The notes beneath the pieces are model-generated. The model was not told the DNA's origin. It saw nothing but the letters and a program-made list of their open reading frames with translations, and ran no database searches. A stretch of 64,000 bases of DNA, taken from the sequence record OR525700, one strand, 5' to 3'. The DNA is from Escherichia phage vB-Eco-KMB37. Shown here one piece after another: positions 10,749 through 21,897 of this stretch. The number at the start of each line of letters is the position of its first letter. Position 1 is the first letter of the stretch. The translations under genes and the position numbers were made by a program.

Positions 10749-11681
10749 TTAGCCTCCAAAGAAGTTTTCTATTTCTTTACGTCGCTCTTGTGGATCTAGA
10801 GCAGCCCATTGAACCTTCGTAAAGTTATTTCTAAGCCATTCTAGCAAAGTATAATATTCTTCGTCAACAATTTGTTTAGCATTATTTGGGTTGTCCCAAA
10901 TCATATCCCACTTCTTATTGCCACCACGCATAAGGAACTTCTTAGCAAGATAGTATGGTGACTTAATCTTTAAGAGTAAGTTAAACGGGTAGTTTGTTTC
11001 ACGAACAACAAAGCCTTCGTGTCTACAATGTTTAGACATTTCAACAACATCTGAAAATTTAATCATCGGATAAACTTCAGGACGTTTAAATTTTGTAATA
11101 GATGCAATCCCATCAAGAACACCTTCAGGTAACATGAAACTTGTCCCATCAAGATTTTGAATTCTTGCTCCAATTAAGTATGCGCCTGGTTCTTCTTCGA
11201 CAATATGTGGATCAGAAGGATCACAGATTTCAAAAAGGAAAGTTGCTTTTGCACTTTCTGTCCACTTAATGAAATACTCTATGTCATCACATTCGGAAAC
11301 AATACGGTTCTTGGCAATAGTTGCAAAGTCTGACTCTAGGCTCCCTGTTGTTGATACAACAAGTTGCCCTTTGTACACACCTACAGATGCCATAAAACCG
11401 TTTACTTTACGGACAGCATCTACAATTTCGTCTGCTGGAAGATCTGTACCATTTTCAAAACGATTAAAAATTTTAGTAAAAGGCCAAATAACAACATTGT
11501 CTTCTGAGTCAACAACCAACCCACGACAATCTAAAAGTCGTTTGTCAACGTTCCACAAGTTATCCCAGAATACATTGTTTTTGTATTTAAGTACAGCAAG
11601 ACCAGCATACTCTCCAGATTTAACTTCTTTTTTATGCACTAAACCTTTTGCAATCAGGTCATCACAATTGAACTTAGCCAC
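10749..11681 (-). CDS. Putative RNA ligase (covalent nucleotidyltransferase)
   Basis: Motif I RKVNGFMA (KxNG), motif IV-like EGFVVRE, motif V-like LLLKIKSPYY; distinct from the DNA ligase at 8488..9651. Confidence 0.5.
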   Translation of the reverse strand: MAKFNCDDLIAKGLVHKKEVKSGEYAGLAVLKYKNNVFWDNLWNVDKRLLDCRGLVVDSEDNVVIWPFTKIFNRFENGTDLPADEIVDAVRKVNGFMASVGVYKGQLVVSTTGSLESDFATIAKNRIVSECDDIEYFIKWTESAKATFLFEICDPSDPHIVEEEPGAYLIGARIQNLDGTSFMLPEGVLDGIASITKFKRPEVYPMIKFSDVVEMSKHCRHEGFVVRETNYPFNLLLKIKSPYYLAKKFLMRGGNKKWDMIWDNPNNAKQIVDEEYYTLLEWLRNNFTKVQWAALDPQERRKEIENFFGG

Positions 11682-11682
11682 C

Positions 11683-12234
11683 TTAATCTCCTTTGATTAT
11701 CTTATGATGATCTACAACAACAATATCACGCTTATCCATAATAGAGATGATTTCGTCAAAATGCAAGATTTTCCCGTGTGCATCCCAACCAACATCCAAC
11801 ATTTTCCCATACAAATGATCAGGGAATGATCCGTGAGAGTGTCCGTGTAGCATGATTGATCCATGCCCTTGTTTATTCCAGGCAGCCATAGGGTAATGAC
11901 TTAAGACGAAGAACAGCTTCTGATATTTCACTTCGTCATAATACACAACTTCTCCATACTCTGCAAGCACTTTTCTGTGTTTGCTGTAATCATGGTTCCC
12001 AACACAGTAAGTAATATCCCCTTGGAGACGGGAAGCAATCTTACGGGTATCTTCTTCAGTCCCGAAACAGAAGTCCCCAAGATGGTACATCTTTACTCCT
12101 GGTGTTGTGGCACATTTATTCCATGCTTCGATCAGTGCTTCTGTCATATGCTCCATATCTTCCCACGGACGATATTCAGGAGCAAACTCTCGGATACGTT
12201 TGTGCATAAAATGCAAATCACTTGTAATAAACAT
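11683..12234 (-). CDS. Calcineurin-like metallophosphoesterase
   Basis: DLHFMH, GDFCFG, GNHD, and HGHSHG motifs (DxH...GDxxD...GNH[DE]...GH.H). Confidence 0.7.
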   Translation of the reverse strand: MFITSDLHFMHKRIREFAPEYRPWEDMEHMTEALIEAWNKCATTPGVKMYHLGDFCFGTEEDTRKIASRLQGDITYCVGNHDYSKHRKVLAEYGEVVYYDEVKYQKLFFVLSHYPMAAWNKQGHGSIMLHGHSHGSFPDHLYGKMLDVGWDAHGKILHFDEIISIMDKRDIVVVDHHKIIKGD

Positions 12235-18694: not shown

Positions 18695-18780
18695 GCAAGT
18701 GTGGTGGAATTGGTGATACACATTGTGCTTAAAACGCAACGCTTAAATGATTGAGGGTTCGAATCCCTCCACTTGCACCA
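18695..18780 (+). tRNA. tRNA-Leu (anticodon TAA), type II
   Basis: Acceptor GCAAGTG/CACTTGC, loop CTTAAAA, long variable arm, T-arm GAGGG-TTCGAAT-CCCTC, CCA encoded. Confidence 0.7.
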
Positions 18781-18782
18781 AC

Positions 18783-18890
18783 GCCTAGTAGGGTATTTGG
18801 TAATTCCGAGGCCATCAAAGCCTGAAAAATATGTTAGACCGTTTTGTCTAACTAAATACGAAATATGGTTCGATTCCATAACTAGGCTCC
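18783..18890 (+). tRNA. Atypical tRNA-like element (about 107 nt)
   Basis: Perfect 7-bp acceptor pairing GCCTAGT/ACTAGGC and T-arm TATGG-TTCGATT-CCATA, but about 32 nt too long, with an extra 7-bp hairpin GTTAGAC/GTCTAAC; anticodon not resolved. Confidence 0.3.
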
Positions 18891-18923
18891 CGATTTAAAT
18901 AGTAATTTTTTAATAAAAATATC

Positions 18924-18952
18924 TTGACATTTACTTAGTTTTTTGTTATAGT
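18924..18952 (+). promoter_or_regulatory. Sigma70-like promoter
   Basis: TTGACA-N17-TATAGT. Confidence 0.55.
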
Positions 18953-18963
18953 CATTATGAAAA

Positions 18964-19045
18964 CGGGGTGTATCTCACCTGACTTCTAATCAGGCGTTAA
19001 CCGAGTAATTGGAGTATGCAGGTTCGAATCCTGTCACCCCGGCCA
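18964..19045 (+). tRNA. Atypical tRNA-like element (anticodon-like loop TCT, Arg-like)
   Basis: Perfect acceptor CGGGGTG/CACCCCG, stem-loop CCTGA-CTTCTAA-TCAGG, T-arm GCAGG-TTCGAAT-CCTGT, CCA; no canonical D-arm and a 24-nt insert before the T-arm. Confidence 0.35.
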
Positions 19046-19063
19046 AAAAGTTTTAAAAACTAC

Positions 19064-19092
19064 TTGACAAGCAAGATAGTTTTATGTTAGAT
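19064..19092 (+). promoter_or_regulatory. Sigma70-like promoter
   Basis: TTGACA-N17-TTAGAT. Confidence 0.5.
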
Positions 19093-19108
19093 TTAAAGTA
19101 TGGTAACA

Positions 19109-19198
19109 GGAAGGTAGGGCGCAGCGGTGCGCAACCAGGTTTGAACCCTGGCCCATTGTAGCGATACGGTGATGGTTCGACTCCATTATCTTCCTCCA
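19109..19198 (+). tRNA. tRNA-Ser (anticodon TGA), type II
   Basis: Acceptor GGAAGGT/ATCTTCC, anticodon arm CCAGG-TTTGAAC-CCTGG, long variable arm, CCA. Confidence 0.65.
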
Positions 19199-19216
19199 AA
19201 TTCGCTTAGGAGCTTT

Positions 19217-19369
19217 ATGAATTATAAAACTATTGGACAGGTTGTTACCGGAGTTAAGATTGTAGATAATAAAGTTGTTTATGAGTATTCTAATCTTCAA
19301 CAATCTGAAGATGGTAAAAATATTCGTATGGTAAAAGCAGAACAAAAAGATTCCGGTTGTTTTGAATAA
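19217..19369 (+). CDS. Hypothetical small protein (50 aa)
   Basis: AGGAG RBS then ATG at 19217; the longer track ORF would start inside the preceding tRNA. Confidence 0.35.
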   Translation: MNYKTIGQVVTGVKIVDNKVVYEYSNLQQSEDGKNIRMVKAEQKDSGCFE

Positions 19370-19377
19370 TTAATAAC

Positions 19378-19463
19378 GGTAGATTGGTGAAATGGTAGCC
19401 ACAACAGTTTGCTAAACTGTAGTCGGAAACGGCGTGTAGGTTCAAGTCCTACATCTACCGCCA
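19378..19463 (+). tRNA. tRNA-Ser (anticodon GCT), type II
   Basis: Acceptor GGTAGAT/ATCTACC, anticodon arm ACAGT-TTGCTAA-ACTGT, long variable arm, discriminator G, CCA. Confidence 0.7.
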
Positions 19464-19597
19464 AGTTATCTTTAATGTAGCTTGTAATCTTACTTTAATA
19501 GAGTAAATCTTCGGCAAGTGGCGGTAACCACTTTACCGATACCCTAATACTTCATAGTCAAGTGCCGCAAACACTGGCTATTTTAAAGATAATTTAT

Positions 19598-19673
19598 ACA
19601 TCGTTAGCTTAGTTGGTAGAGCAAGGGGCTTTTAACTCCAAGGTCGAAGGTTCGAATCCTTCACGATGTACCA
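19598..19673 (+). tRNA. tRNA-Lys (anticodon TTT)
   Basis: Acceptor ACATCGT/ACGATGT, loop CTTTTAA, T-arm GAAGG-TTCGAAT-CCTTC, CCA. Confidence 0.7.
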
Positions 19674-19678
19674 AACAC

Positions 19679-19765
19679 GTAGGTATCGCATAGCGGCAAT
19701 TGCTGGAGACTGTAAATCTCCTGCCCTTCGGGGCTTCGTTGGTTCGAGTCCAACTACCTGCACCA
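19679..19765 (+). tRNA. tRNA-Tyr (anticodon GTA), type II
   Basis: Anticodon arm GGAGA-CTGTAAA-TCTCC, long variable arm, T-arm GTTGG-TTCGAGT-CCAAC, CCA. Confidence 0.7.
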
Positions 19766-19772
19766 AATTAAA

Positions 19773-19857
19773 GATGGATTGGCCTAGTGGTTGGGCGACG
19801 GACTGTTAATCCGTGAACGAAAGTTCTAGCAAGGTTCAAATCCTTGATCCATCGCCA
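19773..19857 (+). tRNA. Type II (long-variable-arm) tRNA with Asn anticodon GTT
   Basis: Perfect acceptor GATGGAT/ATCCATC, 3-bp D-stem, anticodon arm ACGGA-CTGTTAA-TCCGT, 15-nt variable arm with GAAC-GAAA-GTTC hairpin, discriminator G, CCA. Confidence 0.6.
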
Positions 19858-19864
19858 GAATCAT

Positions 19865-19941
19865 GGACTTGTAGAGTTAAGGTAAACCCTCAGTCGCCAA
19901 GAGGCTTCTGGAATTGCAGGTATCGAATCCTGCCGAGTCCA
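19865..19941 (+). tRNA. Atypical tRNA-like element (anticodon unresolved)
   Basis: Acceptor GGACTTG/CGAGTCC pairs well; T-loop has 8 nt (TATCGAAT); no clean 5-bp/7-nt anticodon arm; no encoded CCA. Confidence 0.3.
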
Positions 19942-19947
19942 ATTATT

Positions 19948-20022
19948 GCTCCTATCGTATAACGGCTATTACGGTTGCCTTGTAAGCAACTTATCAGGGT
20001 TCGAGTCCTTGTGGGAGCACCA
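19948..20022 (+). tRNA. tRNA-Thr (anticodon TGT)
   Basis: Acceptor GCTCCTA/TGGGAGC, anticodon arm GTTGC-CTTGTAA-GCAAC, CCA. Confidence 0.7.
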
Positions 20023-20045
20023 ATTTTAACTCTAAAGGAGTGTAT

Positions 20046-20369
20046 GTGACAGAAAAAGAGTTAGAGAAATATTTTAATATCAATGTTTTCGATGGTTTTG
20101 ATGATATTGAAGATGTTGAAAGATATTATGAAGTAGAGTTAGATAAGGATAACATTGTAATTCTTTCTGCCACTTATGATTGTGCATATTATGAAGGTGA
20201 ATCTCACGTTTATTTTTATGATATGAAAACATCTTTGTTTTATGAAGTACACGCATATCATTGTTCTTGTTATGGTTTAGAAGGTCAGTGGGAACCTGAA
20301 GAAATAGGTGATTTGGACTTTACTATTGCATATCTAAACAGACGTGGTGCATCTACTATTTTAAAATAA
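20046..20369 (+). CDS. Hypothetical protein
   Basis: AAGGAG RBS; likely GTG start at 20046 (track start 20040 lies inside the RBS). Confidence 0.45.
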   Translation: MTEKELEKYFNINVFDGFDDIEDVERYYEVELDKDNIVILSATYDCAYYEGESHVYFYDMKTSLFYEVHAYHCSCYGLEGQWEPEEIGDLDFTIAYLNRRGASTILK

Positions 20370-20383
20370 ATATCAAAAGCCTC

Positions 20384-20413
20384 TTGACAAAGGGGCTAAT
20401 AATATGTTAGAGT
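20384..20413 (+). promoter_or_regulatory. Sigma70-like promoter
   Basis: TTGACA-N17-TAGAGT-like. Confidence 0.5.
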
Positions 20414-20424
20414 AATATTGTTAA

Positions 20425-20499
20425 GCGGGTATAGTGTTAATGGTAGCATATGAGGTTTCCACCCTCCAGGTGCAGGTTCAAGTCCTGTTACTCGCTCCA
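20425..20499 (+). tRNA. tRNA-Gly (anticodon TCC)
   Basis: Acceptor GCGGGTA/TACTCGC, loop TTTCCAC, T-arm GCAGG-TTCAAGT-CCTGT, CCA. Confidence 0.7.
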
Positions 20500-20517
20500 A
20501 GATTATTTAAATGGAAT

Positions 20518-20570
20518 CGCTAGAGAAAATTTCTCTTTTCGCTCATGGTTTTCTCCTTCAAACTCTAGCG
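20518..20570 (+). other. Structured spacer between tRNA-Gly and tRNA-Gln (nested inverted repeats)
   Basis: Outer 8-bp inverted repeat CGCTAGAG...CTCTAGCG enclosing hairpin GAGAAA/TTTCTC. Confidence 0.3.
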
Positions 20571-20598
20571 GTTCTTTTTAAGTGATTTTTAGTTTTAT

Positions 20599-20673
20599 TG
20601 GAGATTAGCCTAGTGGGAAGGCAACGGCCTTTGAAGTCGTGATGACTAGGTTCGATTCCTAGATCTCCAGCCA
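20599..20673 (+). tRNA. tRNA-Gln (anticodon TTG)
   Basis: Acceptor TGGAGAT/ATCTCCA, anticodon arm ACGGC-CTTTGAA-GTCGT, T-arm CTAGG-TTCGATT-CCTAG, CCA. Confidence 0.75.
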
Positions 20674-20680
20674 ATATTTA

Positions 20681-20756
20681 CAGTGCGTAGCGCAGTTGGT
20701 AGCGTGGGAGCTTTGGATGCTTCGGGTCGCAGGTTCGAGTCCTGCCGCACTGACCA
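20681..20756 (+). tRNA. tRNA-Pro (anticodon TGG)
   Basis: Acceptor CAGTGCG/CGCACTG, anticodon arm GGAGC-TTTGGAT-GCTTC, T-arm GCAGG-TTCGAGT-CCTGC, CCA. Confidence 0.75.
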
Positions 20757-20761
20757 AATTT

Positions 20762-20836
20762 GCAGAGATAGCTGAGACGGATTAGTGCTACCCTGAAAAG
20801 GTAGAAAGGATGGATCGTTACCATCTCTCTGCACCA
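20762..20836 (+). tRNA. tRNA-Phe (anticodon GAA)
   Basis: Acceptor GCAGAGA/TCTCTGC, anticodon arm CTACC-CTGAAAA-GGTAG, CCA. Confidence 0.7.
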
Positions 20837-20913
20837 AATAACACCATCCAAGGAGTAGACTTGGTTAACTGTCAATAGCACATTGAGGCTTCTTACAGTG
20901 GTGTACTTATTAT

Positions 20914-20998
20914 GGCTAAGTGGTGGAATGGTATACACGATACGCTTAGAACGTATTGCCCCAGTGGATTGTGAGTTCGAGTCTCACCTTAGCTACCA
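20914..20998 (+). tRNA. tRNA-Leu (anticodon TAG), type II
   Basis: Anticodon arm ATACG-CTTAGAA-CGTAT, long variable arm, T-arm GTGAG-TTCGAGT-CTCAC, CCA. Confidence 0.7.
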
Positions 20999-21085
20999 TA
21001 TCTAAGAGATATCATAGGGTTTGCAACGGATATCTACCGTCCTATTAAGGATACCACGCCAAGACGGGTTATAAAGGGTTAGCCA

Positions 21086-21161
21086 TTGATAGTGTGAAGC
21101 TGGCGTTTCGAGTGCTTTCATAAGGCATTGCGAGAAGAGTTCGATTCTCTTACTATCAACC
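21086..21161 (+). tRNA. tRNA with CAT anticodon (Met or Ile2)
   Basis: Acceptor TGATAGT/ACTATCA, loop TTCATAA with wobble-containing stem, T-arm AAGAG-TTCGATT-CTCTT, CCA. Confidence 0.55.
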
Positions 21162-21177
21162 AAATTACTACAGATTG

Positions 21178-21256
21178 CGCGGGATAGAGGAGTCTGGTCG
21201 TCCTCGCCAGTTTCATATGCTGGAGATCATCGGTTCGAATCCGATTTCCGCCTCCA
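21178..21256 (+). tRNA. tRNA with CAT anticodon (Met or Ile2), boundaries approximate
   Basis: D-stem AGGA/TCCT, loop TTCATAT, T-arm ATCGG-TTCGAAT-CCGAT; acceptor pairing imperfect. Confidence 0.5.
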
Positions 21257-21332
21257 ATAAATACCTCCCTTCTGGTGTAATGATTAAATTACATTGACAC
21301 TTCAAGGAACTCATAGCCGGGTAGATTTAAAA

Positions 21333-21397
21333 GAGTATGGTACTCAATATGGCTCCAAACCATAGATCAAGGGGTTCGATTCCTCACCTTGCTGCCA
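21333..21397 (+). tRNA. Possible tRNA-Trp (anticodon CCA), 5' boundary uncertain
   Basis: Anticodon arm TATGG-CTCCAAA-CCATA and T-loop TTCGATT plus CCA are clear; no acceptable 5' acceptor strand found with a normal D-arm. Confidence 0.3.
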
Positions 21398-21401
21398 ATA
21401 T

Positions 21402-21477
21402 TGTGGTATCGTACAGATGGTTAGTACACTCGACCGATAATCGAGAAACAACGGTTCGACTCCGTTTACCACGACCA
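21402..21477 (+). tRNA. tRNA-Ile (anticodon GAT)
   Basis: Acceptor TGTGGTA/TACCACG, D-stem GTAC/GTAC, anticodon arm CTCGA-CCGATAA-TCGAG, CCA. Confidence 0.7.
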
Positions 21478-21858: not shown

Positions 21859-21870
21859 AGAATTTTATAA

Positions 21871-21897
21871 AAGCCTCCTTTTTGGAGGTTTTTTATT
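21871..21897 (+). terminator. Rho-independent terminator
   Basis: CCTCC-TTTTT-GGAGG hairpin followed by TTTTTTATT. Confidence 0.6.

Follow-up and report, generated by a model that had tools for sequence, protein, structure and literature searches.

The 64,000-nucleotide stretch of Escherichia phage vB-Eco-KMB37 DNA analysed here (record OR525700; hereafter the window) contains, at positions 19773-19857, a real phage tRNA gene which combines an asparagine (Asn) anticodon with a long variable arm. In bacteria, long variable arms are by textbook rule limited to the tRNAs for leucine (Leu), serine (Ser) and tyrosine (Tyr), plus that for selenocysteine, and the arm is the main handle of seryl-tRNA synthetase (SerRS). 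The overall best explanation, to which the sequence comparisons point, is that this is on balance probably a functional, Asn-charged phage tRNA of a type II (long-arm) class. The gene would then encode a tRNA that decodes AAC and AAU and is charged by the host asparaginyl-tRNA synthetase (AsnRS) through G34, U35, U36 and G73, and it would belong to a class of tRNA-Asn, restricted to phages and mobile elements, that has presumably acquired type II architecture. Long-arm tRNA-Asn genes form a large group, frequent in phages but hardly ever present in the genomes of cells.

ARAGORN called a tRNA-Asn (gtt) at exactly 19773-19857 on the forward strand, with the anticodon at gene position 33; these are the coordinates at which an earlier, sequence-only reading had placed a type II tRNA with an Asn anticodon. 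Rfam model RF00005 matches 19773-19854 with 56.5 bits, the gathering score being 29 and the whole-window E 1.7e-9, full-length over model positions 1-71. In the RF00005 alignment the anticodon loop is CUGUUAA, with posterior probabilities near 1, and the surplus bases form an insertion in the variable region. The covariance model thus agrees with the sequence-only reading on the anticodon, and no fold placing it elsewhere arose. The minimum-free-energy fold (-29.5 kcal/mol, z -2.6) contains the same five helices as the cloverleaf. An intron or a mis-folded anticodon was also considered and is ruled out, since ARAGORN and the covariance model give one and the same cloverleaf. About 50 phage records carry a 100% identical gene, mostly annotated as tRNA-Asn; the phi92-like BASEL phage EmilieFrey is one of the carriers. 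The parts of the gene, in nucleotides (nt) and base pairs (bp), are as follows:

19773-19857, forward strand: tRNA-Asn(GUU) gene, 85 nt, type II, CCA encoded (ARAGORN, RF00005, fold, about 50 identical phage records)
19782-19796, forward strand: D arm GCCT-AGTGGTT-GGGC with a 7-nt loop, U8 and G9 lying upstream (covariance-model alignment)
19798-19814, forward strand: anticodon arm ACGGA-CUGUUAA-UCCGU, with loop CTGTTAA at 19803-19809 (covariance-model alignment)
19805-19807, forward strand: anticodon GTT, positions 34-36 (ARAGORN, covariance-model alignment)
19815-19829, forward strand: long variable arm of 15 nt, GAAC-GAAA-GUUC-UAG, consisting of GAAC (19815-19818), loop GAAA (19819-19822), GTTC (19823-19826) and unpaired TAG (19827-19829) (sequence)
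19854-19857, forward strand: discriminator G73 (19854) followed by the encoded CCA (sequence)
Read from the sequence: acceptor stem GAUGGAU/AUCCAUC (7 bp); G26 between the D arm and the anticodon arm; T arm CAAGG-UUCAAAU-CCUUG

The perfect 7-bp acceptor of the sequence-only reading is thus borne out, as are its 15-nt variable arm with a hairpin of its own and its discriminator G. The 3-bp D stem it described requires a small amendment, in that the three Watson-Crick pairs stand and the covariance model adds a fourth pair, a U13-G22 wobble. Its remark that the core of the anticodon arm is that of E. coli tRNA-Asn holds for the 16 nt at positions 28-43 (CGGACUGUUAAUCCGU), which are the same in both tRNAs, the E. 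coli reference sequence having been verified in 5,425 genomes.

In E. coli, Asn identity resides in the anticodon (G34 U35 U36) and G73 (PMC9976931), and all four AsnRS determinants are present in the window tRNA-Asn, the acceptor stem of which begins with G1-C72, A2-U71 and U3-A70. For tRNAs drawn from one common set of loci (type II Asn, 100; class I Asn, with short variable loop, 100; Ser, 117; Tyr, 66; Leu, 96), the marks that separate the isotypes were compared:

Discriminator: type II Asn G73 97% (97/100); class I Asn G73 97%; Ser G73 66% (77/117); Tyr A73 98% (65/66); Leu A73 100% (96/96)
1:72 pair: type II Asn U-A 66%, G-C 32%; class I Asn U-A 77%, G-C 20%; Ser G-C 91%; Tyr G-C 89% (59/66); Leu G-C 54%, G-U 38%
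2:71 pair: type II Asn C-G 46%, G-C 38%; class I Asn C-G 61%, G-C 39%; Ser G-C 94%; Tyr G-C 70% (46/66); Leu C-G 76% (73/96)
3:70 pair: type II Asn C-G 37%, G-C 23%, U-A 22%, A-U 16%; class I Asn C-G 54%, G-C 26%; Ser A-U 86%; Tyr G-C 62% (41/66); Leu C-G 50%, G-C 28%
Arm geometry (unpaired bases 5', 3'): type II Asn (0,3), (1,4) or (1,3); class I Asn no arm; Ser (1,1) in 60/117; Tyr (1,3); Leu (1,2)
Arm stem: type II Asn 3-4 bp; Ser mostly 5-7 bp; Tyr and Leu mostly 3-4 bp

The variable region of the window tRNA-Asn, at 15 nt with a 4-bp hairpin, departs from the 4-5-nt loop that marks the class I body of bacterial tRNA-Asn (4-6 nt among the class I Asn tRNAs of the same data). Ser tRNAs are marked by G1-C72 and G2-C71 with A/U at 3:70 and typically by an arm of 5-7 bp flanked by a single unpaired base at either end; the window tRNA-Asn has A2-U71 and a 4-bp arm of geometry (0,3). 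For Tyr the marks are A73 and the anticodon GUA, in place of which G73 and GUU are found. Because Tyr and Leu both need A73, G73 rules out either identity; it is also an antideterminant against the tyrosyl- and leucyl-tRNA synthetases (PMC9976931). Bacterial tRNA-Asn receives its Asn either from AsnRS directly or by way of ND-AspRS and GatCAB. U1-A72 is the GatCAB mark of tRNA-Asn (PMC9976931), and the G1-C72 of the window tRNA-Asn would be acceptable in a host with AsnRS, such as E. coli.

Profile models, a stand-in for isotype-specific models, were built on half of each class and scored on the other half; with the model of their own class, members reached 32-51 bits, and with the remaining models 7-17. 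On the Ser profile, held-out Ser tRNAs scored 34.2 +/- 12.9, Tyr 15.9 and Leu 13.5, while held-out Tyr tRNAs scored 31.8 +/- 12.8 on the Tyr profile. The window tRNA-Asn scored 14.2 on Ser, 9.8 on Tyr and 6.3 on Leu, where genuine members reach 32-49, and therefore lies outside these three classes; masking of the anticodon arm lowers its class I Asn score from 26.8 to 3.4, the background level. A misread Ser or Tyr tRNA is ruled out by the profile scores at non-member level, the acceptor pairs and G73, and a Ser body with an Asn anticodon by A2-U71, U3-A70, the (0,3) arm and the Ser score of 14.2. Nor did the homologues prove to be ordinary Tyr or Ser tRNAs, the relatives being a distinct long-arm Asn class. 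As judged from its acceptor and discriminator marks, the window tRNA-Asn would not be one of the mischarging V-arm tRNAs, in which the body of one amino acid is combined with the anticodon of another; by the same sequence marks it belongs to a distinct class, the identity marks of which match its anticodon.

The sequence-only reading had proposed that such a chimera could be charged with Ser, on the premise that SerRS reads the long arm and not the anticodon. The premise agrees with the identity literature, according to which SerRS depends on the long arm together with G73 and ignores the anticodon (PMC9976931), and a tRNA loaded in this manner would turn a part of the Asn codons into Ser, either for proteome diversification or to the detriment of the host. 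The tRNA-Ser(GCU) of the phage itself has a 4-bp arm with a GAAA loop, so that a short arm alone does not exclude SerRS; moreover, the window tRNA-Asn has C11-G24 and G1-C72, and T5-like members of the family also have G2-C71. However, G1-C72 and G2-C71 are present without exception in the tRNA-Ser of E. coli (PMC9976931), and in the window tRNA-Asn the conserved Ser pairs are replaced by A2-U71 and U3-A70, the arm geometry is (0,3) rather than (1,1) and the Ser profile score is at background. Across the family, 46% of members carry C2-G71, an antideterminant against SerRS (PMC9976931, Table 3), and U1-A72 is retained as in true tRNA-Asn. The window tRNA-Asn is also the sole Asn tRNA of this phage's tRNA cluster as called by ARAGORN, and since Asn makes up 5.6% of codons (56 per 1000, in a window of 38% G+C) efficient Ser insertion would be very costly to the phage. 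Himeno et al. (1990) reportedly found that G73 did not suffice for tRNA-Tyr to accept Ser, alterations of the arm being among the further requirements. Ser charging is thus disfavoured by the missing Ser acceptor pairs, arm geometry and profile score, a mistranslating or dual-identity role appears improbable, and a Ser side-reaction, while possible, is unlikely to dominate. A GenBank note on phage T5, stating that an amber-anticodon version of its tRNA-Asn is no suppressor, was considered as a test of Ser identity and set aside as inapplicable because T5 tRNA-Asn is class I.

We therefore hold with good confidence, on the strength of these sequence marks, that the window tRNA-Asn would be charged with Asn. 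Two points weigh against this assignment. T5-like members that combine G1-C72, G2-C71 and G73 with a long arm overlap the Ser set more than does the window tRNA-Asn, and AsnRS is a class II enzyme; such enzymes approach the tRNA from the side of the variable loop, where the arm could interfere. The argument that the arm spares AsnRS is a single one, namely the evolutionary persistence of long-arm tRNA-Asn.

The long-arm tRNA-Asn genes form a family. Using tools independent of the pattern employed in the scans below, Asn(GUU) tRNAs of 82-86 nt were found in several groups of isolates: the same architecture occurs in phAPEC8 (Phapecoctavirus), PVP-SE1 (Seunavirus), the T5-like Proteus phage Stubb and Providencia phage PSTCR5, 291 Epseptimavirus-type relatives of T5 and one T4-like Serratia phage, and genus-level homologues include Novosibvirus and Priunavirus. 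Between these groups the stems of the extra arm vary by compensatory change (GAAC/GUUC, GUUC/GAAC, GAGU/ACUC). The predicted design common to the family is a hairpin of 3-4 bp in the variable region, usually with a tetraloop, followed by 3-4 unpaired bases. The core also appears remodelled, with a D arm like that of type II tRNAs and often with G9 (40% of type II Asn vs 4% of class I Asn).

When 15 divergent type II Asn members are aligned without gaps, 98.4% of the cells are paired and 17 of the 25 pairs change on both sides; none of 500 shuffles attained the observed value, and slid controls were 31-44% paired. The helix of the extra arm is itself 98.3% paired, with compensatory changes in three of its four pairs; its closing G:C is invariant, as is the central A of the 3' tail. 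The extra-arm helix is thus maintained through compensatory changes. A decaying, non-functional gene with a variable loop disrupted by an insertion could be imagined in view of the degenerate-looking members of the same cluster (the Arg(UCU)-like element at 18964-19045, which lacks a D arm, and a CAT tRNA of 79 nt). Pairing is retained among divergent homologues, each helix showing compensatory changes; together with the existence of 100 distinct sequences of one design and the 100% conservation of the gene sequence in about 50 isolates, this renders decay the most improbable of the readings.

Viral metagenome contigs were scanned with a pattern requiring the Asn anticodon arm, 17-30 bases and then the T loop, which returned at least 117 long Asn(GUU) tRNAs among the 120 matches listed; pooling all scans, 100 distinct type II Asn sequences passed the stem checks. 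With a class-neutral pattern, the type II share of viral tRNA-Asn with this anticodon arm was approximately 15% (about 18 of the 120 matches listed). When the type II pattern was applied to one genome for each of 185,579 bacterial and archaeal species, 81 stretches matched, among which the long Asn tRNAs amounted to 19 loci, 11 of these within arrays of 7-36 tRNAs of the kind borne by phages and mobile elements. No match to type II Asn was obtained in 5,426 complete E. coli genomes. The clearest cellular occurrences are four Micromonospora/Verrucosispora chromosomes (L132, L133, L142 and L198), each with an 89-90-nt type II Asn(GUU) in an array of 23-36 tRNA genes within 8 kb that looks acquired. 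This distribution would suggest a class restricted to phages and mobile elements.

The origin of the architecture was considered through profiles of the body only (acceptor, D and T arms; 20 isotypes), for which the best matches were scattered (Cys 26, class I Asn 16, Gln 11 and Ser 9 among them), and through identities within the same locus, where type II Asn resembles Tyr and class I Asn alike (0.60 each; other isotypes 0.55-0.58). Neither analysis revealed a clear parent, and the resemblance is a mixed one, with Tyr-like arm geometry and class I Asn-like acceptor stems. The arm might accordingly be a neutral legacy without adaptive role, derived from a type II ancestor or from an insertion into the variable loop, in a tRNA that merely supplies Asn decoding to an AT-rich, Asn-rich phage (56 Asn codons per 1000). 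One possible route leads from tRNA-Tyr by A36U (GUA to GUU) and A73G, and a long region, once present, must stay folded. The geometry and length of the arm, with 3-4 bp and 3 unpaired 3' bases, are those of bacterial tRNA-Tyr, the Tyr and Asn genes adjoin both in the window and in phAPEC8, the D arms of some type II Asn tRNAs (CCCGAGYGG...) resemble the Tyr D arm, and covariation demonstrates structural constraint rather than a function of the arm. Yet paralogy with Tyr is not detectable in the same genomes (mean identity 0.60 to Tyr and 0.60 to class I Asn), the Tyr profile score is at background level (9.8) and the acceptor stems are like those of class I Asn rather than those of Tyr. Furthermore, a neutral trait would not be expected at about 15% in phages and at 19 loci in 185,579 cellular species, nor would co-occurrence with extra arms on other isotypes be expected. 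We consider a neutral legacy unlikely, although it deserves more weight than either Ser charging or decay.

As a tentative alternative, to which we give rather less than an even chance, the arm may have been selected as a change of shape that evades host defences targeting tRNA, for example the PARIS nuclease AriB. The extra arm would alter the shape of the tRNA beside the anticodon stem and the elbow, such that host factors attacking tRNA-Asn would no longer fit, while the anticodon stem-loop would stay host-identical as required by AsnRS, by modification at Q34 and t6A37 and by decoding. The targets of AriB are E. coli Lys(UUU), Thr(UGU) and, as a secondary target, tRNA-Asn(GUU), and the T5 versions of Lys, Asn and Thr together neutralise PARIS (PMC12409363). 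AriB cleaves the anticodon stem between positions 40 and 41; U39 is critical, a mutation at position 39 abolishing cleavage, and in an AlphaFold 3 model the second AriB subunit lies on D-loop positions 16-17 (PMC12409363).

The window tRNA-Asn is the same isoacceptor as this known AriB target. In the phage tRNA-Lys(UUU) the relevant sequence is U36-A-A-C-U-C41, i.e. with C39, and in its tRNA-Thr(UGU) it is U36-A-A-G-C-A41, i.e. with G39, the E. coli sequence being U36-A-A-U-C-A41 in both cases; that of the window tRNA-Asn, U36-A-A-U-C-C41, is the E. coli sequence, and the extra helix emerges right after position 43. T5 tRNA-Asn is class I, 78 nt long and divergent in its anticodon stem. Both a class I and a type II Asn tRNA are present in at least 12 loci, of which 10 are viral contigs and 2 are tRNA arrays in cellular genomes; in nine listed viral pairs it is the class I copy whose anticodon stem diverges. 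These observations fit a change of stem and a change of shape as two alternative routes of escape.

Long-arm versions of other class I isotypes were also found in phage arrays, namely Ile(UAU) (13/23), Thr(UGU) (10/74), Cys (8/57), Trp (4/59), Glu(UUC) (4/70) and Lys(UUU) (2/70), with none for Arg (0/153). They are enriched where type II Asn is present (49/731 vs 8/385; odds ratio 3.4, p 5e-4), and long-arm Thr(UGU) often keeps the stem CUGA/UCAG, which bears the AriB site U36-A-A-U-C-A41 (PMC12409363). Among the viral loci L005-L310, examples are L006, L021, L025, L027 and L149 for Ile and L018 and L096 for Thr; the long-arm Ile(UAU) tRNAs have a recurring AGAUUA/AGAUAA motif in the loop of the arm. 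It is conceivable, if still doubtful, that phages have evolved, in parallel, long-arm forms of tRNAs which every cell has as class I, Asn(GUU) being the commonest of these forms and the arm acting as a shape disguise which blocks docking of immune nucleases; similarly, such a disguise might, with no greater assurance, be an alternative to the point mutations that T5 carries in the anticodon stem. The Rnl1-type RNA ligase gene of this phage, described below, is counted in favour of evasion.

Several points weigh against evasion. Without substitutions at positions 39-41, the stem of the window tRNA-Asn still bears the AriB site, and the tRNA-Asn of PVP-SE1 has the arm as well as a changed 31:39 pair. 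The scan pattern fixed the anticodon stem, so that the retention of a canonical stem in type II members is partly a selection effect, and the co-occurrence statistic of 49/731 vs 8/385 ignores relatedness. In addition, phages with type II Asn span many environments, in which the relevant nuclease is not known. The tRNA-Asn of Bas34 was insufficient against PARIS (PMC12409363), which counts neither for nor against evasion. Among other phages of interest, TrudiRoth (Bas30) is an Epseptimavirus with type II Asn, Bas31-33 are Tequintavirus, and the type II tRNA-Asn of SP15 has in published work been used solely as a negative control against PrrC.

The sequence-only reading had also raised a decoy role, in which the RNA would titrate a tRNA-Asn nuclease or modification enzyme by means of its host-identical anticodon arm and would not serve mainly in translation. 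The 16-nt identity of the anticodon arm to that of the host is in keeping with this, and over-expressed viral tRNAs possibly inhibit AriB by competition (PMC12409363). Against it, the 7-bp acceptor, G73, CCA, canonical T loop and G18G19 are all under selection and U1-A72 is kept in two thirds of members, features of translation that a decoy would not need. A decoy is therefore disfavoured by the sequence evidence, and we regard it as very doubtful.

The gene lies within a tRNA cluster which is 98% identical to those of Escherichia phages EC.P2 and PHB05 and other phi92-like Justusliebigvirus genomes, and on this sequence evidence the window is that of a phi92-like (Justusliebigvirus) E. coli phage. 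The Lys(UUU), Tyr, Asn and Thr(UGU) genes of the window all fall within about 425 bases of one another, a proximity counted among the points for evasion:

18695-21477, forward strand: tRNA cluster, 15 ARAGORN tRNAs (ARAGORN, Rfam)
19598-19673, forward strand: tRNA-Lys(UUU), near neighbour of tRNA-Asn
19679-19765, forward strand: tRNA-Tyr, near neighbour of tRNA-Asn
19948-20022, forward strand: tRNA-Thr(UGU), near neighbour of tRNA-Asn
18924-18952, 19064-19093 and 20384-20413: promoter-like sites near the cluster
21869-21893: terminator-like hairpin past the cluster

Directly 3' of the tRNA-Asn gene, at 19858-19947 on the forward strand, there is an unannotated tRNA-like RNA without CCA, with an acceptor-like pairing GGACUUG/CGAGUCC and a T-arm-like GCAGG-UAUCGAAU-CCUGC. 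It is 95-99% conserved in 87 phage records, and in phAPEC8 its homologue is 97.6% identical while the adjoining tRNA-Asn is just 75.6% identical. It aligns with "rna3, putative tRNA-like RNA" of phage T5 (common blocks TGTAGAGTTAA-GTAAACC and ATTGC.G..ATCGAAT), which is also located directly 3' of the T5 tRNA-Asn.

Rfam further calls a tRNA (38.6 bits) at 18964-19045 on the forward strand that was missed by ARAGORN. This element has a tRNA-like fold without D arm; its anticodon loop is CUUCUAA (UCU, Arg AGA), its extra arm is CCGA-GUAA-UUGG, it ends in CCA, and the best promoter-like site of the region (TTGACA-17-TATAGT, 18924-18952) is just upstream of it. Similar sequence occurs in 674 phage records, 233 of them at a coverage of at least 80%, mostly unannotated and in one case labelled "tRNA-OTHER". 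The 79-nt CAT-anticodon tRNA at 21178-21256 (forward strand) has a D arm with a stem of 5 bp and a loop of 9 nt, and its phAPEC8 homologue is annotated "tRNA-Pseudo-CAT"; a sub-threshold tRNA match (22.9 bits) at 21334-21394, also forward, is found just upstream of tRNA-Ile. In Salmonella phage PVP-SE1 (L002, 2348-2433), an 86-nt gene annotated as tRNA-Lys is left by ARAGORN without a determined isotype, its anticodon being given as four bases (ggca), and may be a further non-canonical member of such clusters.

A T4 Rnl1-family RNA ligase is encoded at 10749-11681 on the reverse strand (PF09511, 53.3 bits). The adjoining gene at 11683-12234, on the same strand, has a weak match, below the Pfam cut-off, to calcineurin-like phosphoesterases. 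In T4, this ligase family mends nuclease-cut tRNA, and by sequence similarity the two genes could form a tRNA-repair pair approximately 8 kb from the tRNA cluster.

No account of long-arm tRNA-Asn in phages was encountered in the full-text literature or in reviews of tRNA identity, non-canonical tRNAs and phage tRNAs, most subscription papers lying outside this search. The gene is already known in so far as it is routinely annotated as tRNA-Asn; the type II architecture of phage tRNA-Asn is apparently new within the literature searched, and hundreds of phage records miss such genes or label them as plain tRNA-Asn. A phage-restricted long-arm tRNA-Asn class represents a natural exception to the textbook rule and would imply that AsnRS-type recognition probably tolerates an extra arm. 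Such tRNAs are natural test cases for the reading of tRNA shape by synthetases, by modification enzymes and by the nucleases of host defence. They may bring to light a second way, a structural one, in which phage tRNAs evade immunity directed at tRNA, and could provide scaffolds for orthogonal tRNA engineering.

Compared with the known systems, the window tRNA-Asn shares with the class I tRNA-Asn of E. coli (asnT/U/V/W) the anticodon GUU, the loop CUGUUAA, positions 28-43, G73, A37 after U36 and CCA, and the family-wide frequencies of the 1:72 and 2:71 pairs match those of class I tRNA-Asn. It differs from the E. coli tRNA in having 15 nt with a hairpin in place of a 5-nt variable region, G9 instead of A9, another D arm and G1-C72 instead of U1-A72, overall identity being just 0.61. 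With the Tyr, Ser and Leu tRNAs of bacteria the family has in common the long arm, the short stem, the tetraloop and, in many members, G9 together with type II-like D arms, and its arm geometry is nearest to that of Tyr; the window tRNA-Asn is set apart from them by G73 and by the lack of G2-C71, A3-U70, Ser geometry or a Ser, Leu or Tyr anticodon.

Like the T5 tRNAs that counter PARIS, the window tRNA-Asn is a phage copy of an isoacceptor attacked by AriB and lies near Lys(UUU) and Thr(UGU) genes altered at position 39. In contrast, T5 tRNA-Asn is a class I tRNA with an altered stem, whereas the window tRNA-Asn, known from its sequence alone, pairs the host stem with an extra arm. The nev-tRNAs of nematodes and the allo-tRNAs of bacteria also combine a long arm with the anticodon of an amino acid otherwise served by class I tRNAs, but in these it is the body (Leu, Ser or Ala) that sets, or is believed to set, the charging, so that they can mistranslate (PMC3333845, PMC5389517). 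Allo-tRNAs moreover have 8/4 or 9/3 layouts of acceptor and T stem, whereas the layout of the window tRNA-Asn is the canonical 7/5 and its identity marks match the Asn anticodon.

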